Assembly: GCA_964016885.1 (NCBI GenBank)
Contig: OZ024749.1
Location: forward strand, 45,508,001-45,572,000
DNA: 64,000 nucleotides
Source of the DNA: Eledone cirrhosa
Taxonomy: Eukaryota
Reading direction: 5' to 3'
In this document: positions 5,458-61,667 of the stretch, piece after piece
Layout of the letters: each line of letters begins with the position of its first letter
Position numbering within the stretch: position 1 is the stretch's first letter
The notes under the pieces: model-generated
The model's database searches: none
The model's input: only the letters and a program-made list of their open reading frames with translations
Told to the model about the DNA's origin: nothing
Position numbers and translations under genes: made by a program

Positions 5458-5658
5458 TGCGACCTACGTAGTAAATCGTATCATCGTGAGCTCCGCAAAG
5501 GTTTGTTATTTTTAGTTGTTTAAAATTGCCATTTATGAAAAATGTATATAAGTGCACATGCATTGATTTCTGAAAAAGACACTCAAAAATATTGTGGCCT
5601 TGAGCCCAAAATTTAAACTTTTTATAATTATCAAACAAACATTTTTCTTTGAAAAATC

Positions 5659-6929
5659 ATGGATGACTCAGAGTCACTCCTTCCTCACAATATAACACCT
5701 CACACCGACACCACCATTGTAAATATTGCTACGTTTGCCAACACTGGAAATGTAAGCAGTAGCAATATTTTAAATTTGTCTCATGCAGACCTTCATTTCC
5801 CGCCATTACCAATGACTGCAGGTGTTAAAGCCGCCACCACCACCACCACAGCGACAACAGAAACAAAAGAAAAAAATAAATTAACTCGTGATATCGAAAT
5901 GAATTCAACCAAAATGAACTCTTCCACACCGAACACCACTGACGCCACCACAACCACAACTGAAACTAAAATTAACAATTACAAAAATAACGATAACAAC
6001 AACAGCAACAATGAAATTAAGAAAACTACCCTGAGTTTTGCCAGAGTAGCAAAAACGTGCGAAGCGATCCAGGTAACTCAGGAGGAATTAGAAGAAGCCA
6101 AAGGAATGGTAAATAAAGATGGGTACAGGGTCAGCCCCCCCCCCACCTAATAAAATGGACCATCGTCGCCTATGCACCGTGTCTAATCGGACAATTAACA
6201 TAAAATCGCGCCGAGGGGAACGGGCATCCGAGTCCCAAATCCAAAAAGCTTTGGGACATGTGTGGGCAAAAAAAACCCACATCAGACGTGGGCAGAAATA
6301 TGGAACCGTGGACGTGTTGTTTGAAACACCACAGGAGGCCAGAGAACACTCCATGGCTCCATTAAGAAGTGACGACTTCACACTCGTCCCAAGATATTGT
6401 GGCCAGAGACTTGTGAAGATCAGGGTGACCAACGTTCCACCGGCCATCGAAATTCCCTGGCTAATGGCTGCCGTCCTCGCCGACATCGAGGCCAACACCA
6501 AGATAATTGAAATAGCGAAGGAAAAGCAGGAGAACTGGTCCGGATCTGGGAGGGTGCTCCTGAACCAAGAGGACCATAAAAGCATTGAGGAGATCCCAGA
6601 GGTAATATACCTCACTGACGGCAGCCACCTCACCGTAATCGTCGAGGGCAGAAGGCCTAGGTGTGTCGTTTGTGGTGAAGGAACCCACCTAAGGGCTTTC
6701 TGCCCTCAGGCTAAAAGGTTGAGGCCACCTCTCTTACCCACCCCAGTGATTCAACCATCAACAGCACCAGCAGCAGAAATGGCAGCAACAACTGTAGCAG
6801 CAACAGCAGAAGCAACTGTAACAGCAACAACCCCAGCAACAGTAGCAAAACCAATACCACCACCACCCATCGCGCCAGAAATAGCACCAGCGCCTACACC
6901 ATCCACCACGCCACAACTAAAACAAACGC
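5659..6929 (+). pseudogene. Non-LTR retrotransposon ORF1 (gag-like, CCHC zinc knuckle), frameshifted and 3'-truncated
   Basis: ORFs 5659-6150 and 6119-7021 join if the C10 run at 6135-6144 loses one C. The protein has a low-complexity N-terminus, an SFARVAK motif, an RRM-like segment, CVVCGEGTHLRAFC (Cx2Cx4Hx4C) and an A/T/P-rich tail. No ORF2 follows. Confidence 0.8.
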
Positions 6930-7214
6930 CTGTATTATTATTAATATTAGTTCTGTTGTTTTTGTTCTTGTTGTTACTAACCATATTGTTATTAATATTA
7001 TGTTATGTTCATATCGATTAAGGTGTTGAACATGGTGTTTAGTATATTAATAATTCCAAATAATCAAAAATTCATTATCAACATTGGCACACACGCTAAA
7101 TCAGAAAATTTTAGGCATAACTACATAAACATTTAAATAAGGTTAGTAAAAACTGATAAAAATAACACACCAGAAAATGAAATATATGCTACACAAGAGA
7201 CAGTATAATATTGG

Positions 7215-9126: not shown

Positions 9127-10089
9127 GAGGAATGTATATATATATATATATATATATACATTCCTCTATCCCTATCGTTATGGATAGTAACAAAAATACA
9201 TTTCTACAAGCATGTTTACAATCATATCTACATTTAGAAGTGTTTACTATGTCATCTAAAGGAAATTATCTCTTTCAATATTACCTAAAGGAACACACGA
9301 GTTTTTGATATGTTTCATGTTCTCTACTCATATTATTTCTTCTGAAATTACTTTGTACTTATCTCAAATATGTGTAATCAATTTTACTTTAAGCAATATT
9401 CACGTGTCTTTGTACTTTCCTTTAATTTTATATATATTCACGATGAACTGATTACGTAATCAACAGTTACTAATGTTATTCAGTGTATAATTAGCTAAGA
9501 TACAAGTAATACATCATAGATATTTCAAAGATATATATGCTTTGTGATTATATACATGTGCTTATGTAGAAGTTAGTTTTTCAATATTGGGCTATCGCCA
9601 TTTATAATGATTTTCGTATTTTCTTCTGTATTTGATTTAGGAAGCTTATGTGTTTGTAAAACTAACTAGTCAATACAAATATAATTACCAAAAATTAAGA
9701 CATCCTAGTGGATATTAATTTATGTTACGTCCCGTAAAAAATATATGTAAGACAACGCTATTTGAAATTACATCGTGTGACTTTAAAGTTTACCCGATGA
9801 GCTAAACAATTATATTCATTTCTGGTAGTATTTTAACCCATCAACCCTTTTAAAATCATCTCTCAAAATCACGTGAGTTAATCTTATTTGCAAGCATTTG
9901 GACGCAGATTGCGTCCTGGGTATATATTGACATTCTGAGTAGCTTCCTCTTAAAAGTACATTCCTCTCACACACTGTTGATAATCAGCAAAAGTCCAAGC
10001 TATTAATAAATGTACCTGTCTAATCGAAATCGTTATTGCCGCATACGCAACAGCCTTAATTATTTCTACTCATATACTTATATAATATA

Positions 10090-10212
10090 GCAGTTGAAAA
10101 GCCGGGAGCTCAGCTGTCGGTGTCCTGACTTTCTTATAACAATACTGTACTACCCCACGTAATGTGTACTCTGGAGAGTAATGGTCTAACCAGTTTCTTA
10201 CTGTATCCTTCT

Positions 10213-10215
<3 letters not shown>
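10090..10215 (+). mobile_element. Diverged copy of PLE-like family E
   Basis: ttgaaaagccgggagctcagctgtcggtgtcct...atggtctaaccagtttcttac parallels 24611-24755 and ends at (TA)n. Confidence 0.65.
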
Positions 10216-10247
<32 letters not shown>

Positions 10248-10251
<4 letters not shown>

Positions 10252-10468
10252 AGATGTCAACATGAATAGACCTGTTATTTTTATCTAAAGACATTTTTCC
10301 AATTCCAACTCCACCTGTTCCCTCAATCTATCTTATTTCTCATATTTTCTTCAGGTGAAGGACTAGCGTCCGAAACGTTAAGACCCTCTTCCTGCTATAC
10401 CAAGCGTTAATCTAATATATCCCTTCCATATACTGTACTGATTGTGTTGTTATTTCTGTTTACCTTTT
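10248..10468 (+). mobile_element. PLE-like family B with mutated HHR (10348-10383)
   Basis: Homologous to 25977-26200: tctt-caggtga-a-ggac tagc gtcc-GAAA-C-GTT-aaga. (TA)n on both sides. Confidence 0.75.
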
Positions 10469-12835: not shown

Positions 12836-13014
12836 ATAATTGTTTCTACATTAGGCACAAGGCCAGCAATTACTCAGTGCATTACTGGTACTTTATTTTA
12901 TCGACCCCGTAAGGATGAAAGGCAAAGTCAACCTCGGCGGGATTTGAACTCAGATCGTAAAGGGACGTAACTATGCTGGAAAGCATGGCGTACGACCCTC
13001 TACCGATATTGCCA
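12836..13014 (-). mobile_element. tRNA-derived SINE family 1
   Basis: Near-identical to 47863-48052; B-box GAGTTCAAATCC; the 5' end runs into (TA)n. Confidence 0.92.
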
Positions 13015-13030
13015 TATATATATATGTATA

Positions 13031-13069
<39 letters not shown>

Positions 13070-13122
13070 TTAAAATACTTGAGTGCTTGTTCTGGCCGTT
13101 AATGCTTCTCGTCTCTTTACTT

Positions 13123-13163
13123 GCTCTGATGAGTCCCTATTGATGGGACGAAACACTGTCAGC
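13123..13163 (+). ncRNA. Minimal type I hammerhead ribozyme with canonical core, in TA-flanked element 13066-13210
   Basis: gct-CTGATGA-gtccc tattgat gggac-GAAA-C act GTC-agc, then AATAAA at 13165-13170. Confidence 0.88.
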
Positions 13164-13211
13164 TAATAAAGACTTTTGATGTATTGAAGGCTTCTTTGTT
13201 TATTTTTCATA

Positions 13212-16296: not shown

Positions 16297-16476
16297 TTGG
16301 CAGTATCGGTAGAGGGTCGGACGCTATGCTTTCCAGCATAGTTACGTCCCTTTACGATCTGAGTTCAAATCCCTCCAGGGTTGTCTTTGCCTTTCATCCT
16401 TACGGGGTCGATAACATAAAGTACCAGTAATGCACTGGGTAACTGCTGGCCTTGTGCCTAAAGTAGAAACAATTAT
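16297..16476 (+). mobile_element. SINE family 1
   Basis: A-box TGGCAGTATCGG, B-box GAGTTCAAATCC, core ctttgcctttcatccttacggggtcgataa, tail gtagaaacaattat. Confidence 0.92.
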
Positions 16477-24610: not shown

Positions 24611-24753
24611 TAGTCCAGAATTAGCCGTCGAAACGCCTTGAGCTCAGCCGTCGGGGTCCTACTCGTTCCTATTACCCACTCCACTCTACTACCCTAAGTA
24701 TTGAGTACTTTGGTGCGTTATGGTCCATCTGGTTCCTTACCACATTTCCTTCG

Positions 24754-24755
<2 letters not shown>
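24611..24755 (+). mobile_element. PLE-like family E carrying the 3' half of an HHR
   Basis: tagccgtc-GAAA-cgcct tgagctc agcc-GTC-ggggtcc; 5'-truncated within helix II; (TA)n on both sides. Confidence 0.8.
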
Positions 24756-24824
<69 letters not shown>

Positions 24825-24975
24825 AGTGTATACTCTACTAACACAAGTATCGAGTAATCTGTTTAGTAATGGTCTAATTATTTTCAAACTAGTTCAAACC
24901 TGAGTTATGTATATATATTTTTAAACACACGCACACACACACACACACACACTCACCCACACATACACCCCCCCC

Positions 24976-25976: not shown

Positions 25977-25979
<3 letters not shown>

Positions 25980-26200
25980 CGACAGTTTTCCAACATGAAT
26001 GGACCTGTTACTTTTATCTAAAGACATTTTTTCCAAATCCATCCCGTCCGTCTCCTCAATCTATCTTATTTCTCATTTCTTCTGATGAAGTACTAGCGTC
26101 CGAAACGTCAAGACCCTCTTCCTGCTATTTCAAGCGTTCACCTAATATATTCCTTCCATATACTGTACCGATTGTGTAGTTATCTATGTTTACCTTTTAC
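25977..26200 (+). mobile_element. PLE-like family B
   Basis: Homologous to 10248-10468; flanked by (TA)n. Confidence 0.8.
26078..26113 (+). ncRNA. Minimal type I hammerhead ribozyme (family B)
   Basis: tctt-CTGATGA-a-gtac tagc gtcc-GAAA-C-GTC-aaga; one helix II mismatch that is intact in the 10348 copy. Confidence 0.82.
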
Positions 26201-26201
26201 A

Positions 26202-26289
<88 letters not shown>

Positions 26290-27108: not shown

Positions 27109-27313
27109 TTTCGTTTCTGAATTTGTTTAGCAAGGTTCTTTATCTGAAAACGTGTGTTGAAACCGATATTGTTATGCTTTGGGAGGGTCATGTTGCCAAT
27201 AAGAAACACACGCACCAATTGCTTTCACTTAAATTAAATTTATAATAAATTGTAGTGAAAGCAACGGGTGCGTGTGTTTCCTATTGGCAACATGACCCCC
27301 ACCCCCAAAGCAT

Positions 27314-27321
<8 letters not shown>
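27108..27321. mobile_element. Fold-back element, family D (arms 27166-27229 / 27254-27321)
   Basis: Imperfect inverted repeat; GAAAccgatattgtta resembles an HHR 3' half; related pieces at 44518-44582 and 63120-63256. Confidence 0.7.
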
Positions 27322-28143: not shown

Positions 28144-28203
28144 AGACCCATGCTAGCGTGGAAAATGGACGTTAAACAATGATGATGATGATGATGATGA
28201 TGA
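28140..28203 (+). mobile_element. 3'-terminal stub of an RTE-type LINE/SINE with (TGA)n tail
   Basis: gtccagacccatgctagcgtggaaaatggacgttaaacaa followed by (tga)n, inside (TA)n; recognised from memory as an RTE-type 3' end. Confidence 0.6.
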
Positions 28204-28224
28204 TATATATATATATATATATAT

Positions 28225-28411
28225 ATAGGAACCAGTAAGACCCCGACAGCTGAGCTCAAGCCGTTTCGACGGCTAATTCTGAATTAGCCGTCGAAACGGC
28301 TTGAGCTCAGCTGTCGGGGTCTTACTGGTTCCTATTACCCACTCTACTACCTCAAGTATTGAGTACTTTGGTGCGTTATGGTCCACCTGGTTCCTTACCA
28401 CATTTCCTTCG

Positions 28412-28413
<2 letters not shown>
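28225..28413. mobile_element. PLE-like family E fold-back insertion
   Basis: Perfect 55-bp arms 28225-28279 / 28281-28335 with a 1-nt spacer; the plus arm continues to the family 3' end. Confidence 0.88.
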
Positions 28414-28472
<59 letters not shown>

Positions 28473-29024
28473 TATATATATATATTTAGACACACATATA
28501 TATTTATATATATGTAGAGGCATGCATAATATACATGGTAATATACGAGTAATGGAATATATTTCCCTAAAACGAAAAACACCACAGAATATATCTTTGG
28601 TCTTGTGGCAGTTGATATTTTTCCAAGTTGAAAATAAATATATATATATATGAACTTATGTTTAATTCATACCTCTACTAACATTATACTGTCATCGATT
28701 CTTGGCTCTGTATTCTAAAAGTCGTGTTAAATGGTTACTGTCAGCCACATATTAAGACCGTCTTCTGGCCAAATTTCAAACAGTCTACTAGAAAAACAAA
28801 ACGACAAAACAAAAACAAAATATTAAGTTTCATTTAATAACGCATTAGTGGAAAATAAAATAGGTTTAGCGAGAATCCGTGGTGACAGTATATTCCAATG
28901 ACAAAATATTTTTTGTTGTTATTGTTGCTCATGTTGCTATTACCGTTGTATTTTTGTTCTATTGTTTTTGTTTTTGTCTTTTTGAATCAATGTAAGAACT
29001 TAATCTGAGTTTTTCGAATATTAA

Positions 29025-29211
29025 ACAATTCTTTCTATTTTTGGCACAAGGCCAGCAATTACCCAGTGCATTACTAGTACTTTATTTTATCGACCGGTAA
29101 GGATGAAAGGCAAAGTTTACCTCGGCGGAATTTGAACTGAGAATGGCAAAGGCCGTAACTCTATGCGTCAAATCATGGCGTCCGACCCTCTACCGATACT
29201 GCCAAACCACC
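29025..29211 (-). mobile_element. SINE family 1
   Basis: Matches consensus; subfamily variant gaatggcaaaggccgtaactctatgcgtcaa is shared with 60688. Confidence 0.92.
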
Positions 29212-30264
29212 ATTCGATTTCTTTGTAATTATGCAAACAGCTTCGTTTAAGCCATGTCAGTAGAATGGGCCCCTCTTTCTTGCTCTTGTGTCGGCTTGTA
29301 AGTTATATAAGAAGTGATTTAATACAACATATTATCAAACTCTTCCAAGCATTATATCCCCATATTTATTCCAGATGATATATCTAGGACTGTGACATTC
29401 AGAAGTTTCCTTACCCTATATTTTCAAACAGTGGTCTTCAATTTGATGTGGATTTAACTGGTATTAGTTTGGATTTACATAGCTGCTCTTGATAACTGGT
29501 GAGAGTGTCGACCTATTTTTGTTGTTCCGGGATATGTCGAGATGGTATATTTTGAAGTGATAGACATTCAGGTTATCAGCCGACATTGGTCTTAAATTTT
29601 CAGGTGTTGTAGTTATTTCCTACTTGTGGTATAGGATTTCGGTTACCTTCTTGATAATTATCCTGTTGTTGTTGATAATAATTACCCCTGGGTAATAAGG
29701 TAATTGGGATTTTTTTTCCATTCTAAAACTATTAGTGTGTGATTTTGGGAATGTTCGGCTGATGAATATGCTGTTGGGGAGAAATGCTTTTATCCCTGAC
29801 GTTTTAGTATGTGGTCTAGTTGATTTTAATATATATGCCTCGGACTTATATCGATATTTTTTGTGCTTTTGATGTTAATATAATATATTTAACAACAAAA
29901 ATGTAATATCAAGTTTTGACAGGCTTCATTGAATTTATTATATATATTTTTTTCCATTTGTATGCGCAGAAGATTAATGTACTCGCTAATATATCTTAAA
30001 TAAATATTGTTCGGTTTTCGGTTTTCGTTCAGCAGTGTAGTATAATATAATGCAGTTAATTTAGGTGTAGTGTACATTTGCTCTTTGTTATAACCTTGTC
30101 ATAGTATAGCGATATATATCTTAATGTTGTTGTCAAGTTTCCTTTTAGTTTGGTGGAATTGTTATCTATAGAGTTGTTGATATTGTATGAATATATGTCT
30201 AATATGTAATTCTATGAGCGACACTTTTCCCATTCAAATTTTCAATATTTTATTTATATATATA

Positions 30265-30296
<32 letters not shown>

Positions 30297-30297
30297 C

Positions 30298-30569
30298 GAA
30301 ATAACAGGAGGCTGGACTGGTGTAAATCCTTGAAAGGTTTATTATACTATGATCATTTCAATGACCGGGTTCCATATGAATCCGGTGATATCATTAGATA
30401 TTGGAATATAACAAAGGAATATGTAAAAAGCCATGGGTCCGAAAAACGATGGGTCCGAGAAACCAGAGACAGAGAGGGCCACCGGATTCATATGGAACCC
30501 GGTCATTGAAATGATCATAGTATAATAAACCTTTCAAGGATTTACACCAGTCCAGCCTCCTGTTATTTC
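30298..30569. mobile_element. PLE-like fold-back (90-bp arms 30298-30387 / 30480-30569) with HHR-like motif at 30348-30400 (-)
   Basis: Minus strand reads tat-ctaatga-t-atcaccgg..ccggtcat-t-GAAA-tg-ATC-ata-gtatAATAAA. Confidence 0.8.
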
Positions 30570-30690
30570 ATTTATAATTAACTCCGTATTCGCACCACCA
30601 ACTACACAAACGAAGATGGGTGAACTGCACTGCTTTGAGTACTCTTCACAATATTACACTAGGATTGACCATACGGAATGACCATACGGA

Positions 30691-30831
30691 ATCGAGTGGG
30701 TTAATCGGCCGGGTGCACCGAAAACGATAAACGGAAAAAATTAAACGAAATTTCATTTCCCACTCTTAGTACGGCTGTACTAAGAGTGGGAAATGAAATT
30801 TCGGTGCACCCGGCCTATTAACCCACTCGAT
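30691..30831. repeat. Long hairpin/palindrome
   Basis: Outer arms 30691-30723 / 30799-30831; inner arms 30746-30772 / 30777-30803; 4-nt loop ggct. Confidence 0.9.
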
Positions 30832-30906
30832 ATGCAAATGGGGCTACTCAGCCGTTAATATGCATAAGGTAAATATATACGTTCAACAATGTGGCAGGAA
30901 GGTATA

Positions 30907-30947
30907 CGTTGCTGACGCTAGCTAATAAGCTTGAAACTAGTACAGCG
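30907..30947 (+). ncRNA. Minimal type I hammerhead ribozyme (A9C variant)
   Basis: cgttg-CTGACGc-t-agct aata agct-t-GAAA-C-TA-GTA-cagcg; palindromic ACTAGT helix III. Confidence 0.72.
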
Positions 30948-31152
30948 TTCCTTTGACAGTGTTGAACAAACGAGCAACGATGGTTGCTAGACACTACGGC
31001 TTAATACGGGATGTTTGTTTACAAACACACTGAGCATTATAATAAATGTTCGGTGAATCCATACGTACATGTATATATGTGTGCATGTATGTATATATAT
31101 ATACATACTACTGTACGTCTGTATGTGTACATACTTATATATATATATATAT

Positions 31153-31198
<46 letters not shown>

Positions 31199-31201
<3 letters not shown>

Positions 31202-31765
31202 GATAAATCTACCAAGAGTTTACGGTAGTGTCCAATCCGTATGAAGAACTCAATGTAATCCGGATATCATGGAAAGAAGAGATGCAATGAAAAATCACTT
31301 TCGGTGAAAGATAAACGGAATACAGAGTCAAGATAAAATATTAAAAAAATAATGAATAAAACAATGAAACAGTTCCTTATATTAAACAAAAAAAGTTCAT
31401 TATTTAACGATCGTTTCTAGGATATATATGTGTTAGAATTGGCATGCATATTCAACAGATCTATGTACAAAATTATACAAAATTATACAAACTATCAAAA
31501 TTAAATATACATACCAAACACATATATATGCCGTCTTCAGAAATAATGATTATTTCAGGATTATTTCTGAAGACGGCATATATATGTGTTTGGTATGTAT
31601 ATTTAATTTTGATAGTTTGTATAATTTTGTATAATTTTGTACATAGATCTGTTGAATATGCATGCCAATTCTAATACATATATATCCTAGAAACGATCGT
31701 TAAATAATGAACTTTTTTTGTTTAATATAAGGAACTGTTTCATTGTTTTATTCATTATTTTTTTA

Positions 31766-31774
<9 letters not shown>
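31199..31774. mobile_element. PLE-like fold-back with 215-bp arms (31333-31547 / 31560-31774)
   Basis: One mismatch seen between the arms; 12-nt spacer; (TA)n on both sides. Confidence 0.9.
31560..31708 (+). ncRNA. Hammerhead ribozyme with extended helix II (mirror copy at 31399-31547, minus strand)
   Basis: attattt-CTGAAGA-[about 115 nt hairpin domain]-GAAA-C-GATC-GTT-aaataat; 7-bp helix I. Confidence 0.78.
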
Positions 31775-31836
<62 letters not shown>

Positions 31837-32315
31837 CAAAATATTAATAAATGAAAAATATTCTCATAATAAATATTCTCATATATATATATATACTAAG
31901 CAAAATTGTGTCAAATAATCACACAACCACAAAGACATATATATGGGCACATATATATGCACACACACACACATATATATACATTCAACTAATCACACAC
32001 ATATATATGCTTGTGTGTATGTGTGCGTGTGTGATTATTTGTATGAATATATTTATATAAACGTGTATCTATATGTATGAGTCCATATATATATGTCTGT
32101 GTGCGTGTGTGATTATTTGTCGCAATTATATGTCGCACTATATATAATATGCGTACATAGGTATATATTTATATGTATAGAAATTCGTTGATACTTAGAG
32201 ACCAACCCACACATACGATGGTAAATATGTTTGTGCTTCAAACGTTTATTTTGAAATGGAAAGTTTCACAAGACATCTGAAATGTTGTTTTCAAAATACA
32301 CATTCACTTTCAAGC

Positions 32316-32335
32316 TGTAGTTGTTGTTGTTGTTG

Positions 32336-32416
<81 letters not shown>

Positions 32417-32480
32417 TTATTATTATTATTATTGTTGTTGTTGTTGTTGTTATTATTATTATCATTATCATTATCGTTAT
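32316..32480. repeat. Compound (GTT)n/(ATT)n microsatellite
   Basis: Direct. Confidence 0.97.
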
Positions 32481-32899
32481 TTTAAAAGACATATTAATTC
32501 ACATGTGGCGGTACAGACAAATTACACGAAGCTGCTAGATGTGAGATTCTCTTCTAAGAAATTTATACGAAGCGAAGAATACAACATTGGCATTTATTTT
32601 AAATATAGATGTTACTTAATACGCAAATATATCCGATAATATAGAGGATGTGGTTAACAGAAGTACATATTTGTCTCCCAGTTTCCTACATTTCCTTCAT
32701 GTATGTTTCTTAAGATGATGACATCATCTTATCTGTATTTTCTTTATATCTCATATTTTATATATTCGTATTTTTATTGATATTGCAACAGTATTTTCTT
32801 TCGTTCATTCTTTCCGACATTTCTTCTGCGCTTTATTATTGATCCAAGTGAAGGAGTGAATCTTCTTTAGAGATATGATTGGTAAATTATAGAGAAATG

Positions 32900-32955
<56 letters not shown>

Positions 32956-34427
32956 TATATATATATATAATTTGCCAGTACATAATTTGTATATGAGACA
33001 TGCGAAATATGCTGTATCTTTGAACACGAAATCATAAATGTAAGTGAAATATAACTAAAGAAATCTGATATTTGAAACACCTAATCAGTGGATCGATGCA
33101 CCAAACAATTAGGCCTATATTTAAGCCTACATTTATTTACACACCTAGAAAATCATACGTCTGTACGTCAGTTTGCTTTTAGTTATCTTTGTGTACAATA
33201 TCACGTGTGTGACTCTGTATGTATATATTTGATTCCTGAGATGAAATAGCATATCTATAATCTGCCGCTCATTCTATGCCATACAAAATGATTTGTATAT
33301 ATCTGAGCGCAGTCGCGTGAACGTTACAAGAAAACAGCCGTCCGTGTACTTTTATTTATATGAATAAGTTGATATGTGTCTTTCTATTTACAATGGAACG
33401 ATTATCTGATGTAGATCTATTTACTTGTAATAAAGTTGAGGTAACATGTAAGTCTTTACTGATTATGTGAAACATTTTGCGAGATGTAACAACCAAATAT
33501 ATTAGTTTAGCACTAAACTGTTGTTTGCTTTAATGAAATCGGTAGAATAGTGAATAGCTTAACAAAAAAATGGTAATAATAACGAAGGCAAGTTATTCAC
33601 ATATTCATTTCATTGCTTTACGATCGTTTCGGAGGGTTGATCATATTGATATAATGACTAATCTATAGCAGCTATAGAACTGTATACTATCAGATATAAT
33701 ATATATGTTCGATCATACAGTCTTCCTCGGAAAAAAATTACATCCCCGTCCCTCTTAAAACCTAGGCTGAAAGATAGGTCTCTGTGGGTAATGCATATCT
33801 ATGTACCCAAGAAAGAGTCTAAATACTGACACTTCCTTGATGAAGTCATTGCAGCGTTAGATGTAGTTAAGTGTCATATAGCGCCTCTTACGAAAGAAAA
33901 TATACGTCAATTGATCTTAGTGTTCACTGTACTATGCTATAATATTTGATAGAACAGAAGCTTCAGAAGCGGTTTGGAATCTGATATTCGATTACTTCGG
34001 TCTCCTAGCTGCTTCCCCAGAATCGGAGAAGAGAAATTAATTCATAAAGAGCTGAATTGATATCAGGATAGTTTTAGCAGCAAATTATGCAGACAGGTCT
34101 TGTGAAGCAGCTATTTATATATTCCATCAATGTTGTTGCTTTCCTCGTTTCTTTCTTTCTATTCAACCTCTTTGATATGCATTTTCTTTAATTAGGTATT
34201 CTTATTCATGTACCAACATAGCAGGAAATATAAGTAGACCAGTTTATTGCTCATATAAGTTCTGTAATTCTAATGAAGCGAATTAACTGAATCGAATTTT
34301 ATTGATGATAATATAGAGCATCAAAATTCGGACTTACATTACTGACATAGAAAAATCCGCGCATATAGAAATATATTGTGGTTATGAAGAAATTACCGAA
34401 GAAGTTTATATATATATATATATATAT

Positions 34428-34633
34428 AACGAAGGAAATGTGGTAAGGAACCAGGTGGACCATAACGCACCAAAGTACTCAATACTTAGGGTAGTAGAGT
34501 GGGTAATAGGAACGAGTAGGACTCGACGGCTGAGCTCAAGCCGTTTCGACGGCTAATTCTGGACTCAGAATTGGTCCAGAATTAGCCGTCGGAACGGCTT
34601 GAGCTCAGCCGTCGGGGTCCTACTCGTTCCTAT
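34428..34633. mobile_element. PLE-like family E fold-back insertion
   Basis: Minus copy 34428-34565, spacer cagaattg, plus short arm 34574-34633; (TA)n on both sides. Confidence 0.88.
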
Positions 34634-34934
34634 ATATATATACTCGTATACACACATTCACACACGCACAAACATTGTAATTCTTCTTAAATATATATAA
34701 TCTGGATTTTTCACTACCTATAGATGATATGAGATTTAACAGATGCCATACCGTGATGTATCGTTACACCTACTCAGGCACTCACACACTCAGCTAAAAT
34801 CACTCTCTCCAACATATCCCAATATATATATAGAGAGAGAGGTGTGTGTTTTATGTGCGTGTATGTGTGTTAACTATTTCTGTAGAAATGGTAAAGGAAA
34901 TAAGAGTGCTCTACGTATAGTACAGAGCTATATG

Positions 34935-35123
34935 ATTACATAAAAAACAACACAATATATTTATTCCATTACCAAATATTTCATGAAACTAGACGACCCT
35001 TACAGAAACGTTATCTAATAGATAACCATTTCATCTGATGAACGGGCCGGACGTCTCTGTAAGGATCGTCTAGTTTCTTGAAACCTTTGGTAATGGGATA
35101 ATGATATCGTGTTGTTTATTATG

Positions 35124-35127
<4 letters not shown>
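34935..35127. mobile_element. Older PLE-like fold-back (arms 34935-35011 / 35051-35127)
   Basis: Imperfect inverted repeat ending at (TA)n. Confidence 0.8.
35032..35095 (+). ncRNA. Type I hammerhead ribozyme
   Basis: cat-CTGATGA-[imperfect helix II with ggacg/cgtct]-GAAA-CC ttt G-GTA-atg. Confidence 0.72.
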
Positions 35128-36358: not shown

Positions 36359-36423
<65 letters not shown>

Positions 36424-36424
<1 letters not shown>

Positions 36425-36689
36425 AGTTATTCCGGGTTGAATCGGAGGTAACCACAGTAAGTAAGGTACTCAATACATACCAGAGTATAAACGTTTAATA
36501 TAGAAGAGCTTCTACAGGACTAGAACTGTTTCATTCGTGAGCCAATTATCTCCACCCATCCGAATCCCCACCCTCTCCTACCACCAGAAAAAAAGAAAAT
36601 ATATAAATACCACTACTTACTTGGACAGCCAGATCCCTGATAATTTCTCACGAATGAAACAGTTCTAGTCCTATAGAAGCTCTTCTATA

Positions 36690-36693
<4 letters not shown>
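36424..36693. mobile_element. PLE-like family C inverted insertion; mutated HHR at 36632-36680
   Basis: Arms 36495-36541 / 36647-36693 with 1 mismatch; TATATAAATA about 30 nt upstream of the HHR core. Confidence 0.85.
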
Positions 36694-39754: not shown

Positions 39755-40039
39755 TATAGGGGAAGCACCCCAACACATGATTCTGCCTTTGTCACACTTC
39801 TTTCAGTCTTAAAGTATTAGCTCCTAAAGAATTTACTTTTTTTTTAAACCAATGAACCCACCCATCCGGTAGAAACCTGTCTTACAGGCATTGTTAGTTT
39901 AAGAGGTAAACAAGGATTGGTATTCCAAATATGAATTTGTTTACAGTATTCTTTCTGCTTTTGTTAATATTATAGCTTTAAAGAATTAGCTTTTAATATA
40001 ACTCCCTTTTCTTTTTCTTTAAATCCATCTACCAATGAC

Positions 40040-40262
40040 CTCCACACATCCCAATACACACCCTCTCCTGCCACCAGAACAGAAAATATATAAATACTAC
40101 CACTTACTTGGACAGCCAGCTTCCTAAAGATTTCTCTCGAATGAAATAGTTCTAGTCCTGTAGAATCACCTCTATATTAAAACATTTATATTAAAACATT
40201 TATCTGTTATGTATTGAGTACCTTGCTTACTGTGGTTACCTCCGATTCACCCCGGAATAACC
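40040..40262 (+). mobile_element. PLE-like family C; mutated HHR at 40119-40167
   Basis: gcttc-ctaaaga-tttc tctc gaat-GAAA-tag ttctagtc ct-GTA-gaatc; may extend upstream to about 39755. Confidence 0.8.
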
Positions 40263-40263
40263 T

Positions 40264-40910
<647 letters not shown>

Positions 40911-44517: not shown

Positions 44518-44582
44518 ATATTGTTATACTTGGGGAGGGTCATATTTGTGTCATATTGCCAGAATTAATAATTCATCGCCGC
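44518..44582 (+). mobile_element. Family D fragment in (TA)n
   Basis: atattgttatacttggggagggtcat...attgccag matches 27166-27200 and the reverse complement of 63205-63256. Confidence 0.65.
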
Positions 44583-46890: not shown

Positions 46891-46989
46891 TATCGACCCC
46901 GTAAGGATGAAAGGCAAAGTTATGATCGGCAGGATTTGAACTCAGACCTTAAAGGGAAGTAACTCTATGCTGCAATGCATGGTGTCCGA

Positions 46990-46995
<6 letters not shown>
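46891..46995 (-). mobile_element. Inverted partial duplicate of the SINE copy at 47203-47420
   Basis: About 105 bp with 2 mismatches; shares variants not seen in the other SINE copies here. Confidence 0.85.
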
Positions 46996-47202: not shown

Positions 47203-47420
47203 GGGTGGTGGATTGGCAGTATCGGTAGAGAGTCGGACACCATGCATTGCAGCATAGAGTTACTTCCCTTTAAGGTCTGAGTTCAAATCCTGCCGAGCAT
47301 AACTTTGCCTTTCATCCTTACGCGGTCGATAAAATAGAGTACCAGTAACGTACTGAGATCTATTTAATCGACTTTCCCCTCCCACAAAATTACTGGTCTT
47401 GTGCCTATAGTAGAAATTAT
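47203..47420 (+). mobile_element. SINE family 1, long-tail subfamily
   Basis: A and B boxes plus an extra tttaatcgactttcccctccc segment, as in 56007-56220. Confidence 0.9.
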
Positions 47421-47862: not shown

Positions 47863-48052
47863 AATAATTGTTTCTACTTTTGGCACAAGGCCAGCAATTA
47901 CCCAGTGCATTACTGGTACTTTATTTTATCGACCCCGTAAGGATGAAAGGCAAAGTCAACCTCGGCGGGATTTGAACTCAGATCGTAAAGGGACGTAACT
48001 ATGCTGGAAAGCATGGCGTCCGACCCTCTACCGATACTGCCAATCCACCGCC
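47863..48052 (-). mobile_element. Full-length young SINE family 1
   Basis: Perfect 17-bp TSD ttaagtatacaataatt (47853-47869 / 48054-48070). Confidence 0.95.
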
Positions 48053-48100
48053 ATTAAGTATACAATAATTAAGATTCTACCGCATTATTTCATTTCCATT

Positions 48101-48290
48101 AGGACGAATTGGCAGTATCGGTGGAGGGTCAGTCACCATGCTTTCCAGCATAGTTACGTCCCTTTACGGTCTGAGCTCAAATCCCGTTGACGTTAACTTT
48201 GCCTTTCATCCTTACGGGGTCGATAAAATAAAGTACCAGCAGTGCATTGGGATAATTGCTGGCCTTGAATCAAAAGTAGAAACAATTATT
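48101..48290 (+). mobile_element. SINE family 1
   Basis: 17-bp TSD with 1 mismatch (48084-48100 / 48285-48301). Confidence 0.92.
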
Positions 48291-52589: not shown

Positions 52590-52778
52590 ATAATTGTTTC
52601 TACTTTTGACACAAGGCCAGCAATTACTGTGTACATTACTGGTACTTTATTTTATCGACCTCGTAAGGATGAAAGGCTAAGTTAACCTTGGCGGGATTTG
52701 AACTCAGATCGTAAAAGGACGTAACTATGGTGGAAAGAATGGCGTCTGACCCTCCCCCGATAGTGCCAATTCACCGAC
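52590..52778 (-). mobile_element. SINE family 1
   Basis: 14-bp TSD ctatatgatataat (52581-52594 / 52779-52792). Confidence 0.93.
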
Positions 52779-54095: not shown

Positions 54096-54192
54096 TTAAC
54101 TTTGCCTTTCATCTTTACGAGATGGATATAATGAAGCACCAGTAATGCACTGAGATAATTGCTGGCCTTGTGCCAAATGTAGAAACACTTAT
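54096..54192 (+). mobile_element. 5'-truncated SINE family 1
   Basis: Core and tail match the consensus. Confidence 0.8.
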
Positions 54193-54500
54193 TTTCATGC
54201 GTTACATTAAATTCCAAATACATTTCAAACTATATTGTCTGTTTTATCCAAACTCATCGGACTTCTGATATTACTTTGAGTATCAGTAATGCCTATAATA
54301 TTCAGACGTTTGTCAACTAATTGATTTGATCTTCATTTTATCGAATTATATTAAATACAGCTATATCAATCATATAAATTGGGGCCGTTTAGTTAACTAG
54401 TTAGATCTGTCAGACAGCCATTATCTAGTGGATATCATGTACGATTCTTCATAGCGATCGCTGGCCATAGTGATTTGACTATAAGTTGTGTTTACCTAAT

Positions 54501-54684
54501 ATTGTTTCTACTTTTGGTACAAGGCCAGCAATTACTCAGTGCATTACTGGTACATTATTTAATCGACCCCGTAAGGATAAAAGGCAATATTAACCTCGGC
54601 CGGATTTGAACTCAGAATGGCAAGGGCCATAATGTGAAGCTGCAAAGCATGGCGTCCGACCCTCTACTGATACTGCCAATCCAC
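54501..54684 (-). mobile_element. SINE family 1
   Basis: Matches the consensus; possible TSD taatatt. Confidence 0.9.
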
Positions 54685-56006: not shown

Positions 56007-56220
56007 GGATTTCTAGTATAGGCACAAGGCCAGTAATTTGGGGGAGGGGAAAGTCGATTAAATCAACCTCAGTACGTTAGTGGTGCTTTATTTTATCGAA
56101 CCTGTAAGGATGAAAGGCAAAGATAACCTCGGCGGGATTTGAACTCAGATCGTAAAGGGACGTAACTATGCTGGAAAGGATGGCGTCAGACCCTCTACCG
56201 ATACTGCCAATCCACCCCCA
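56007..56220 (-). mobile_element. SINE family 1, long-tail subfamily
   Basis: TSD aaccttt(t)tctataataa (55989-56006 / 56232-56248). Confidence 0.92.
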
Positions 56221-56574
56221 ACTTATAATAAAACCTTTTCTATAATAATGAGCATGGTTTTAACGAATATGAACTATGTAGAAATGAAGAAAATGAATGT
56301 GAATATATATGAGGATCCCTGCCTATAATTTACATGACGATGATATGACACTTATGATTTGTTTTTATATATTGGAAAAGAAACACAGATATTATATCGA
56401 TGTATTTACATGAATTACACTTATACTATTGTCTGAATTGTTTATAACAACTGTGGACATGAAACGGTAAATGAAATAATGCACAAAAAAAAGAACAATC
56501 GACTTTCGTGAAATCGAACCGAGAAATCAATGTTTCCGTTGGTCTTTCCTATTGTTAATACTATCTATCGATCG

Positions 56575-56701
56575 CAACTGCAGGTAGAAGGAGCAACGTG
56601 AAATAAATTTCCTGCTCAAGGACATAACACATCGCCCGGTCCGGCAATCGAACTCACCACCTCACGATTGCGATTCTGTAAGCACTCAGCCACACAACTC
56701 C
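56575..56701 (-). mobile_element. SINE family 2
   Basis: Minus strand reads tggctgagtg..gagttcgattgcc..gtccttgagcaggaaatttatttcacgttgctcc. Confidence 0.7.
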
Positions 56702-56816
56702 ACTTATAATGCACATATAACTCCCATATATGATTGCAATTCTGAATTATTGCCATAGTTTAAATAAATCTACACATGCCTATATCATTTCATTATCCAT
56801 TTCATATCAAAATAAG

Positions 56817-57150
56817 ATAATAATTGTTTCTACATTTGGCACAAGGCCAACAATTATACCAGTGCATCACTGGTACTTTATTTAAAATAAAATAATAATA
56901 AAAAAGGTAACATCTATTTTGTTTTAGCAGTATCATTGTCATTATCATTAGGTCGGTGGATTGGCATTATCGGTAGAGGTTCGGACACCTTGCTTTGTGA
57001 AATAGATTTAAGGCCTTTTACGTTCTGGGTCCAAATCCGGCCGAGCTTAGCTTTGCATTTCATCTTCACTGGGATCGATTTAATCGAAAGTTGCCACGCC
57101 CCAAAATTGCTGGCCTTGTGCCTAAATCAGAAACTATTATTATTATTATT
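56817..57150. mobile_element. SINE family 1 tail (56817-56883, minus) plus an older plus-strand copy (56951-57150) running into (ATT)n(GTC)n(GTA)n
   Basis: Consensus matches; the microsatellite extends to about 57300. Confidence 0.75.
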
Positions 57151-58224: not shown

Positions 58225-58268
<44 letters not shown>

Positions 58269-59159
58269 GCCACAATACGTTACTTCTATGCGTTAAATCT
58301 CTGATCCTCATCAGAGAAGTGTATGTGTTTATAATAAACACGCCCAAAGTTTGGGTCTTAAATATGATTATTTTTTTCTAAGATAAATTCAGGAACGTTA
58401 TTTTCCACCAGGGATATTATTTCCATTTGTTTATCGACATACATTCTTTGTTGGAATGTTGTCTATACACATACATATATGTAAGTTTTAATAAAACCTA
58501 TGTGTAGCAGACTTTTCTAGACTCGCCATTTCTACGTTGGTTTTTCAATACTTTTAATAAGGTGGACGAATACTTGAGATTCTCTAGACTTTAGATTCTT
58601 CGCAGAACTAAGTCTCCTGGAAATGAAGCAATCCGAAATGTAATGCCTTTAAAGATGGGAAAAAAGCCTCAGAAATAATATGATTCTGAACCGTATCCTT
58701 ATGATCGTGAGCCAAGGATTAAAAACATTAATCATCCATAATTGGGTTAAAACATGAAATATTGTGTAGGTAGAGATACAGTATCCACTCACTATATCAA
58801 TGTGTCTAATAGCATTTGTACATATGAAGAATATAGAGGTTGATCTCATAACACGTCTAATACACGAATGATCTTAACGAAGACAGTGTATATTAGGACG
58901 TGTTGAATAATATATACAACAGGTGAACATATATAAAATTCGATAATTAATTTATATAGAAGAATCTTCTACTGGAAACACTTAAATATCGAAGATATAT
59001 TTTTGGTTGAGCGTTAGGGTTAGCTTTTTGCCTATATTTGTATGTGTACATATGCATATGTTTTACGGTATTTCTATTGTGTTATTGTCTCCTTAGAAGT
59101 TTTCCATATATTCGATACACACACATATATATATATATATGTATATGTATATAGGTATG

Positions 59160-59234
<75 letters not shown>

Positions 59235-59240
<6 letters not shown>

Positions 59241-59639
59241 GGATTTAAATGGATACAGTTTAGTTAAAAGGAATTTATTGACACGTGTTTCAATAACAGT
59301 TACATAACCTGAAAACAGCTGCTATCTACAAAATTCTACAAGATTCTGATTCTGCAAATGCTAATTCTACAAGATTCTGATGAAATGACAGTTGATAATA
59401 ACATTGAAATATTGAATGTCTGCATAACTAATACTTTGTAGATAGCAGCTGTTTTCAGGTTATGTAACTGTTATTGAAACACGTGTCAATAAATTCCTTT
59501 TAACTAAACTGTATCCATTTAAATCCTTCTATTTTTCTCCGGATTACTTTTGGAACTACAACTGGAACCGTCGAGCAAACTCTACGTGAGCTGTCCATCT
59601 ACCGTATGTAATATTTATATTACAACACTACGGAACATA

Positions 59640-59642
<3 letters not shown>
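59235..59642. mobile_element. PLE-like fold-back (98-bp arms 59235-59332 / 59435-59532)
   Basis: Arms appear identical; (TA)n on both sides. Confidence 0.88.
59374..59490 (+). ncRNA. Hammerhead ribozyme with 72-nt loop II and intact core
   Basis: att-CTGATGA-aatgacagtt-[72 nt]-aactgttatt-GAAA-C-ACGT-GTC-aat(aaa). Confidence 0.83.
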
Positions 59643-60687: not shown

Positions 60688-60878
60688 ATAATTGTTTCTA
60701 GTTTTGGCACAAGGCCAGCAATTACCCAGTGCATTACTGGTACTTTATTTTATCGACCCCGTAAGGATGAAAGGCAAAGTTAACCTCGGCGGGATTTGAA
60801 CTCAGAATGGCAAGGGCCGTAACTCTATGCGTCAAAGCATGGCGTCCGACCCTCTATCGATACTGCCAATCCACCGCC
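60688..60878 (-). mobile_element. Full-length SINE family 1
   Basis: 17-bp TSD cttagctttaac(a/g)taat (60676-60692 / 60882-60898). Confidence 0.95.
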
Positions 60879-60940
60879 ATACTTAGCTTTAACGTAATGT
60901 TATTTTTTTTTCTAAGGGAATATCCCATTCATGTATCTAG

Positions 60941-61156
60941 GGCACTAGATTGGCCGAATCGTTAGAGCATTGAGGAAAATTATTTTTATGATTGTGTCCT
61001 TCTTTTTAATACTGAGTGTAAATCCCGCCGAGGTTGAACTTGCGTTTTGTCCTTTAAGGGTTGATAAAATAAAGCATCATTCTCGTAAAGGATTCGACGT
61101 AATAGCAGTTCCTCTCTCTCTAAGTTCTTCGTCTTGTGCCTAAATCAGAAATTATC
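60941..61156 (+). mobile_element. Old SINE family 1 copy
   Basis: tggccgaatcgttagagc...aaatcccgccgaggttg...gataaaataaag...cttgtgcctaaatcagaaattat. Confidence 0.75.
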
Positions 61157-61230
61157 ATATATTTAAAGAGTGTTGTGCGACACAATGGTTAACACCGAAG
61201 ATATATACTGTTATTATTATTTTTAATATC

Positions 61231-61360
61231 GGCCCTTGCCATTATGAGTTCAAATCCCACCGAGTTTAACTTTGCCTTTCATGCTTATGGGGTCGATAAA
61301 ATAAAGTACCAGTAATACACTGGGTTATTGCTGGCCTGTGCCAAAAGTAGAAACAATTAT
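61231..61360 (+). mobile_element. 5'-truncated SINE family 1
   Basis: Perfect 18-bp TSD attattatttttaatatc (61213-61230 / 61356-61373). Confidence 0.93.
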
Positions 61361-61667
61361 TATTTTTAATATCCTGTCTTTCCCTTCATATTTCTGATGA
61401 AGTTAAAATGAAATAAGGGTCAAATAATGTAGTCAATATAATCAGTGTAGAGACTCACTTAAAATATGATTCACTTAAAATATGATTATGTGTCTAAGCT
61501 CCCAATGATTTTATTTTAATATAACTCATCGTACAATGTTATACGAAGATTAGTATTGATTTCTAAGTTTAAGACATTAAAGCCAGGTTTACTCAATGAC
61601 ACGTCAGTTGTCTCCAGAAAACCTGATATTGATTTTACTGTGTGAGCATATATATAAATATATATAT

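Follow-up and report, generated by a model that had tools for sequence, protein, structure and literature searches.

How does a short, non-coding insertion come to carry an inverted copy of itself at one end and a tail at the other end only? The question is raised by two insertions of a repeat that we call family E, near 28 and 34 kb of a 64,000-nucleotide (nt) stretch of the Eledone cirrhosa genome (assembly GCA_964016885.1, contig OZ024749.1, positions 45,508,001 to 45,572,000 of the forward strand; the whole stretch is referred to as the window, and positions are counted from its first letter). The window is AT-rich and mainly non-coding and holds more than 200 (TA)n runs. Family E and its neighbours are very probably end fragments of Penelope-like elements (PLEs) that carry a hammerhead and target (TA)n. 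The account of their fold-backs that we prefer, tentatively and with close to even confidence, is that both ends of the cut target primed synthesis on PLE RNA.

Architecture of the family E insertions

Four copies of family E lie in the window, two of them fold-backs and two single-arm copies, together with a related tail fragment, and all four have their 3' side in a (TA)n tract. In the 28-kb insertion, a tail-less short arm on the minus strand (28225-28279) is followed by a 1-nt apex (28280) and by a plus-strand long arm, whose common portion (28281-28335) matches the short arm at 55/55 positions before running on into a 77-nt tail (28336-28412) that the long arm alone possesses. The insertion lies between target tracts at 28203-28227, on the short-arm side, and 28413-28462, at the element 3' end, and the outer end of the short arm overlaps the former by 3 nt (TAT). 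On the plus strand, the long arm contains the 3' half of a type I hammerhead (28293-28315), with GAAA, a 6-bp stem III, a palindromic loop and a GUC site, and the tail contains the motif TGAGTAC (28360-28366), 46 nt from the 3' end.

The 34-kb insertion consists of a minus-strand long arm (34429-34564, with its 77-nt tail at 34429-34505 and its 3' end at the tract 34407-34428), a 9-nt spacer (34565-34573) that repeats 7 nt of the arm start, and a plus-strand short arm (34574-34633) that agrees with its own long arm in 57/60 columns. Both short arms end ...GTTCCTAT against (TA)n, where the long arm continues TACC, and stop at the identical base, 77 nt before the element 3' end, with 3 nt of TA overlap in each. 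The preliminary description of the locus had reported this common outer breakpoint at a TAT; its coordinates and the end itself are confirmed, and the 77-nt tail is missing from both short arms. The single-arm copies lie on the plus strand, one with a tail at 24613-24754 and a diverged one, about 74% identical, at 10088-10217; a diverged, tail-only fragment related to family E (24830-24885) stands right after the TA tract of the 24613 copy. The 5' ends of all six family E arms, single-arm copies included, fall 8-26 nt before the GAAA. A single copy, when folded, shows no excess stability (z=0.37).

It had also been claimed that the two 28-kb arms share private variants, and comparison of arm-to-arm with copy-to-copy identity had been suggested as a check. 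The identical 28-kb arms differ from each of three other young arms by 4 substitutions in 55 (with an additional indel in one case), but one of their supposedly private variants, CTGTC, recurs in the diverged copy at 10088. Arm-to-arm identity thus exceeds copy-to-copy identity in one of the two insertions only: the 34-kb arms differ from each other by 2 substitutions and 1 indel, and the short arm, with 2 substitutions relative to the 24613 copy, is a closer match to that copy than to the long arm of its own insertion.

Fold-backs across the window

Fold-backs were sought by masked BLAST self-comparison, which replaced an inverted-repeat finder that had been swamped by TA tracts. The comparison returned 10 fold-backs in the 64-kb window in which a (TA)n tract adjoins the end of the short arm, and at least eight unrelated families in the window each have a fold-back. 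The two arms duplicate the same stretch in 9/9 cases and are oriented head to head in all eight whose polarity is readable. The inserts span 150-600 nt only, the tail is found on one end only (56-133 nt across nine fold-backs), and no (TA)n remnant is present in any of nine spacers. Short direct repeats, a possible sign of iterative synthesis, occur at 4/9 junctions against 20% of random windows, and we do not take them as evidence. A miniature inverted-repeat transposable element (MITE) or a DNA transposon was ruled out, because one arm is longer than the other and one of the ends is internal in every case.

This architecture is a known shape of PLE insertions, which often carry an inverted, 5'-truncated copy at their 5' end and a tail of 30-40 nt at one end only (PMC8557442). 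The window reproduces it as an inverted, 5'-truncated, head-to-head copy (in two of the four family E copies), a palindrome or overlap at the junction, and a one-ended tail.

Identity of the elements

The assignment to PLEs rests on RNA motifs, target and architecture, since no PLE protein domain was found; Pfam searches of two read-through regions gave none, and the family E copies are too short to contain an open reading frame (ORF). A full type I hammerhead descriptor, relaxed after a stricter first version had given no match, finds 6 core loci in 5 elements, against a mean of 0.7 (maximum 3) in 40 shuffles. Complete cores occur in sister elements at 13126, 26082, 31540/31567, 35035 and 59377. 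Three regions were scanned with Rfam: one core matches Hammerhead_HH9 with E=0.001, below the gathering score, and 25977-26204 and 34429-35125 gave no hammerhead match. A whole-window Rfam scan held nothing useful among the 150 of 316 matches listed, which were mostly microRNA models on microsatellites. In family E, where only half the ribozyme is present, a hammerhead 3' half arises in 0.8% of 5000 arm shuffles (a post hoc estimate).

A second shared feature is a tail motif, [TA]GAG[CT][AT][CG], located 36-49 nt from the 3' end in six families, namely E, its sister family F, and those of the fold-backs at 30291, 31774, 35127 and 59235. The pattern was defined post hoc, with about 1.4% expected per 15-nt zone. 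By eye, it can be seen in the 3' ends of 4/6 Hydra consensi in File S7 of PMC8557442, at 16-27 nt from the end as opposed to 36-49 nt here, and the tail at 35127 shares an exact 12-nt match with Hydra-2_Ajap. The consensi Hydra-1_Obim and Hydra-1_Ajap in the same file are tail-less and stop at an AT run, 36-46 nt past the cleavage site, which resembles the short-arm ends described above.

From these sequence features, the PLE group nearest to family E and its neighbours looks like the Hydra clade, and we infer that family E would be the 3'-terminal 130-150 nt (pseudo-long-terminal-repeat end plus tail) of an element of that type. Of the Hydra entries listed in PMC8557442, 26/27 prefer (TA)n, a preference also found in Naiad and Neptune and therefore non-diagnostic. 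The type I hammerhead of Hydra elements, which has a GUC, GUA or GUU site, sits roughly 100-200 nt short of the 3' end, and the annotation of one entry places an inverted, 5'-truncated copy at the 5' end (PMC8557442). In family E, where half of the ribozyme is present, the cleavage site lies 97 nt from the 3' end, a distance like those in File S2 of that paper. No PLE ORF was found for the elements here, which sets them apart from the Hydra clade. The lack of a canonical hammerhead that characterizes Naiad does not describe them, as the sisters have complete hammerheads and family E a well-formed 3' half. No window family was matched by eye to Hydra-1_Obim, and a 12-nt family E probe had no match in the searched part of the Craig 2021 supplement. 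PLE hammerheads with a palindromic helix III have been described (PMC4209133). Non-LTR retrozymes (PMC7229834; bioRxiv 10.64898/2026.07.22.740005) are likewise short, non-coding and PLE-related with a type I hammerhead, but they form head-to-tail tandem units, whereas family E copies are solitary or head to head and lack a whole ribozyme; no tandem family E units occur in the window.

TA overlap and the position of the short-arm ends

Overlap between short-arm end and tract was tested in nine TA-flanked fold-backs that are not SINE-like (short interspersed element). Outside this set stand the fold-backs at 30691/30746 and 63176, which are not TA-flanked, the one ending at 40537, which has a (CT)n flank, and the SINE-like one at 46891. 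The overlaps are 2, 4, 3, 1, 3, 3, 2, 1 and 3 nt (range 1-4) and add up to 22, where the null model gives a mean of 8.5 (P=0.002); the bias persists with family E counted once (P=0.007) and gives P=0.08 for the three fold-backs that the preliminary description did not name. That description had proposed a TA-microhomology bias of arm ends, and the bias is real but modest. It had named four further ends in particular: those at 31774 and 59235 overlap their tracts by 3 nt and that at 35127 by 2 nt, but that at 36693 by only 1 nt.

For the two family E arms, random ends would coincide with a probability of 0.007, and ends limited to the arm's three TAT sites with one of 0.33. The shared end is by itself weak evidence, because a pure microhomology rule would produce it one time in three. 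Longer TA runs inside the arms at 31774 and 59235 were left unused, which implies that position counts besides pairing. In addition, all 7 short-arm ends tested fall in the interval bounded by the cleavage site and the tail motif (P 0.005-0.019, post hoc). The common outer end of family E is best read as the tail start.

Possible two-end priming and its alternatives

In vitro, the Poseidon element PAc from Anolis cuts and extends both strands of an AT-rich target, is predicted to act as a dimer, and starts synthesis at two internal sites whose spacing corresponds to the tail (Frangieh 2024, PMC11167929); inverted insertions are not treated in the parts of that paper drawn on here. If the elements in the window behave like this member of a different clade, their endonuclease would cut both strands of the (TA)n tract. 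One 3' end would prime at a distal start, about 46 nt past the conserved tail motif, and give the tailed long arm. The other would prime at a proximal start, which lies downstream of the hammerhead cleavage site by 18-73 nt (family E: 20 nt), in a register set by 1-4 nt of TA pairing, and give the tail-less short arm. Both complementary DNAs (cDNAs) would usually stall in or just before the hammerhead, and their 3' ends would be joined head to head, so that each templates the second strand of the other. More generally, PLEs may integrate by double target-primed reverse transcription, in which a dimer starts cDNA at both cut ends and the tail motif and hammerhead place the distal and proximal start sites. 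We regard this as a serious possibility that falls short of being probable; if true, a single process would account for the inverted repeats, for the restriction of the tail to one side and for synthesis of the second strand. Such a model for PLEs was not found in the literature searched, which left most older PLE reviews outside its scope. The tail motif is a candidate for the cis signal that sets the distal start.

The case that favours two-end priming is the family F fold-back at 36423-36693. Its long arm (minus strand, 36423-36541) carries a 72-nt tail, and its short arm (plus strand, 36543-36693) reaches about 100 nt beyond the long arm in the 5' direction; the spacer aligns over 96 nt (84%, E=2e-27) with a plus-strand single copy near 40032. 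Each arm therefore holds sequence that the other lacks, and a plain snap-back cannot give such arms without a later deletion. An older family F fold-back at 40365-40537, with a hammerhead core inside its spacer, shows the same stagger on a 10-nt scale; the target there is a (CT)n tract, and the short arm stops against it about 7 nt away from the position of the 36693 end. The window thus gives two-end priming one good case and one weak case. Further support comes from the uniform head-to-head orientation, from the confinement of the tested short-arm ends between cleavage site and motif, and from a single-arm copy near 44522 that shares its internal end with the short arm at 27321. Priming by both (TA)n ends, one of them internally, had been proposed in the preliminary description, and it fits both PLE biochemistry and the staggered arms, but is not proved here; the accompanying suggestion of a new twin-priming variant does not hold, because the architecture is the standard published one.

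Snap-back requires only one priming on the same PLE: the 3' end of the cDNA would fold back and copy the cDNA towards the tail. Microhomology capture at an AT-rich site, or a cut of the intermediate there by the element's endonuclease, would then connect the product to the second end of the target. We consider this account, in either form, rather unlikely. That it fits most junctions weighs against two-end priming: spacers measure only 1, 9, 9, 12 and 12 nt in five of nine fold-backs, and a sixth junction, at 35127, reduces to a 13-nt palindrome. The long arm at 35127 has lost 26 nt, which indicates that such deletions happen and could explain 36693 too; the short-arm polarity of the 35127 spacer, which might seem to support two-end priming, was not counted since this deletion accounts for it. 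Arms are 98-100% identical at 28225, 30291, 31774 and 59235. Outer-junction microhomology and arm identity are expected under both accounts. Neither of the two checks suggested in the preliminary description settles the matter; snap-back or homogenisation of arms would likewise predict identical arms. Snap-back is documented for R2 insertions (PMC11371274), where, as here, an antisense copy of the insert stands between its 5' end and the upstream target. For PLEs, Arkhipova 2013 (PMC3846280) interpreted junction palindromes as self-priming, and Craig 2021 (PMC8557442) attributed the tail to endonuclease resolution; in the parts drawn on here, neither proposes two-end priming. Snap-back would, however, need later deletions of about 100 nt at 36423-36693 and fewer at 40365-40537, whereas near-perfect palindromes persist at 28225 and 31774. 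Alone, it predicts neither tail-less single-arm copies nor ends confined between cleavage site and motif, and the R2 products, as reported in the parts of that study drawn on here, have no fixed outer end or tail and a short arm always contained in the cDNA. Nor do small spacers require snap-back, because single-arm copies, too, have their 5' ends clustered at the hammerhead.

Two further accounts were considered. Both family E insertions could derive from one already palindromic master, transcribed and retroposed or simply duplicated, which we think improbable; its companion assumptions, that the 28-kb copy lost 18 apex nt and had its arms homogenised and that single-arm copies are hairpin truncations, seem equally so. 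In whole-insertion alignment, the 28-kb insertion is the 34-kb insertion minus a single central 18-nt gap, plus point changes. The inner spacers, whose identity would have pointed to a master, are thus not identical, yet differ by that gap only. The 24613 copy starts precisely where the 34-kb arms have their inner end, these arms are no more alike than separate copies and have no private variant in common, and the hammerhead 5' core is absent from every family E copy in the window. All this also weighs against two-end priming. A master would nevertheless account for the E pair only, and not for the origin of a shape that at least eight unrelated families display within 64 kb, which implies frequent new formation; the two family F fold-backs, moreover, have differing apexes, and their ends are separated by about 7 nt. 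Host repair, in which a break in (TA)n is healed by a local inverted template switch at TA microhomology with no reverse transcription, is very improbable as a general explanation, given the uniform head-to-head orientation, the (TA)n-free spacers, and the fact that at least 7/10 (TA)n-flanked fold-backs lie in hammerhead or tail-motif elements despite the abundance of TA runs. It nonetheless has one candidate, the SINE-like fold-back at 46891-46995 / 47227-47331, whose arms are 103/105 identical to each other and at most about 87% identical to other copies; with microsatellite overlap at both short-arm ends and unrelated DNA in the spacer, it suggests that host repair was at work at least once. 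Two-end priming must also contend with tails of 56-133 nt against the published 30-40 nt, with the behaviour of PAc, a different clade, which starts without homology to its target (PMC11167929) while a small overlap bias is seen here, and with a coding search that found no Pfam match to a reverse transcriptase or GIY-YIG domain in 150 of 254 ORFs of at least 45 amino acids.

Two-end priming as proposed here would differ from L1 twin priming. In the latter, reportedly described by Ostertag and Kazazian in 2001, the second target end is said to prime internally on the RNA through short microhomology, and the two cDNAs are said to cover mostly different parts of the RNA, so that an inversion results, usually with a deletion. 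The arms in the window instead cover the same stretch, rather than RNA upstream of the non-inverted segment, and this would require either another RNA or that the first cDNA be displaced.

Other fold-backs and repeats in the window

The remaining fold-backs vary mainly in spacer and tail. That at 31200-31774 contains a complete hammerhead in both arms (214/215 identical), a 133-nt tail and a 12-nt spacer, and that at 34870-35127 has a complete hammerhead in its short arm and the 26-nt gap of its long arm beside the apex. At 59235-59642, arms identical at 98/98 positions flank a 102-nt spacer, with a 110-nt tail; the spacer is in long-arm polarity, which fits either two-end priming or snap-back. 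A fold-back at 30291-30690, unnamed in the preliminary description, has a 92-nt spacer, the tail motif and a hammerhead-like 3' half. Family H is represented by a fold-back at 27110-27321 with a 4-nt overlap and a 56-nt tail, in which no hammerhead is shown; a single-arm copy near 44522, short and diverged, stops at the internal site where the short arm (27321) of this fold-back does. Directly after the tail of the 30291 element lies a nested fold-back (30691-30831), with 33-nt arms and a 58-nt inner palindrome, that is not TA-flanked.

Family F elements have a TATA-like box at 36605-36615 and 40085-40100, about 25-30 nt before the hammerhead, and several family F 5' ends lie just downstream of it; transcription may start there. 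At 10250-10467 and 25977-26204, two single-arm copies from a different family carry a minimal hammerhead and no tail motif, and their 3' ends are about 7 nt apart. The single-arm, TA-flanked element at 13066-13211 has the near-canonical hammerhead matched by Rfam HH9 (E=0.001). On the minus strand, an 860-nt island (58265-59124) ends at a TA tract and includes a decayed hammerhead-like core at 58314; it is possibly a longer, decayed PLE, and Pfam and protein searches of its read-through (58266-59123) gave no match.

About 17 copies of a 180-nt tRNA-like SINE, which we take to be an octopus SINE, are found at 12836-13014, 16297-16476, 29024-29211, 47863-48290, 52590-52776, 54096-54684, 56009-57143 and 60688-61366, several of them as nearby inverted pairs with 72-93% identity. 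The SINE-like fold-back at 46891 is young and head to head, ends in ATA where it adjoins a TA run and in AGAGAG where it adjoins a (CT)n run, and contains a fragment of another repeat in its spacer. Two long ORFs at 5653-7021, the second with a CCHC-like knuckle, resemble the gag-like ORF of a long interspersed element (LINE); neither had a Pfam match, and protein searches with the gag-like ORF (6113-7018) found nothing.

Implications

How the inversion in such insertions forms is named as an open question by Craig 2021 (PMC8557442), the one in vitro study found (PMC11167929) does not take it up, and a repeat study of Octopus vulgaris (PMC13282606) lists PLE families with nothing, in the parts drawn on here, on fold-back formation. 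Two-end priming, as proposed in the preliminary description, is a reasonable answer to this question. About ten short fold-backs in 64 kb probably correspond to thousands in the host genome, and such structures are readily mis-annotated as MITEs or, as the predominance of microRNA models among the Rfam matches illustrates, as microRNA hairpins. If two-end priming holds, these elements would represent a route to the second strand of a retrotransposon that is distinct from those of L1 and R2, and their mechanism would have a bearing on RNA-templated gene insertion.

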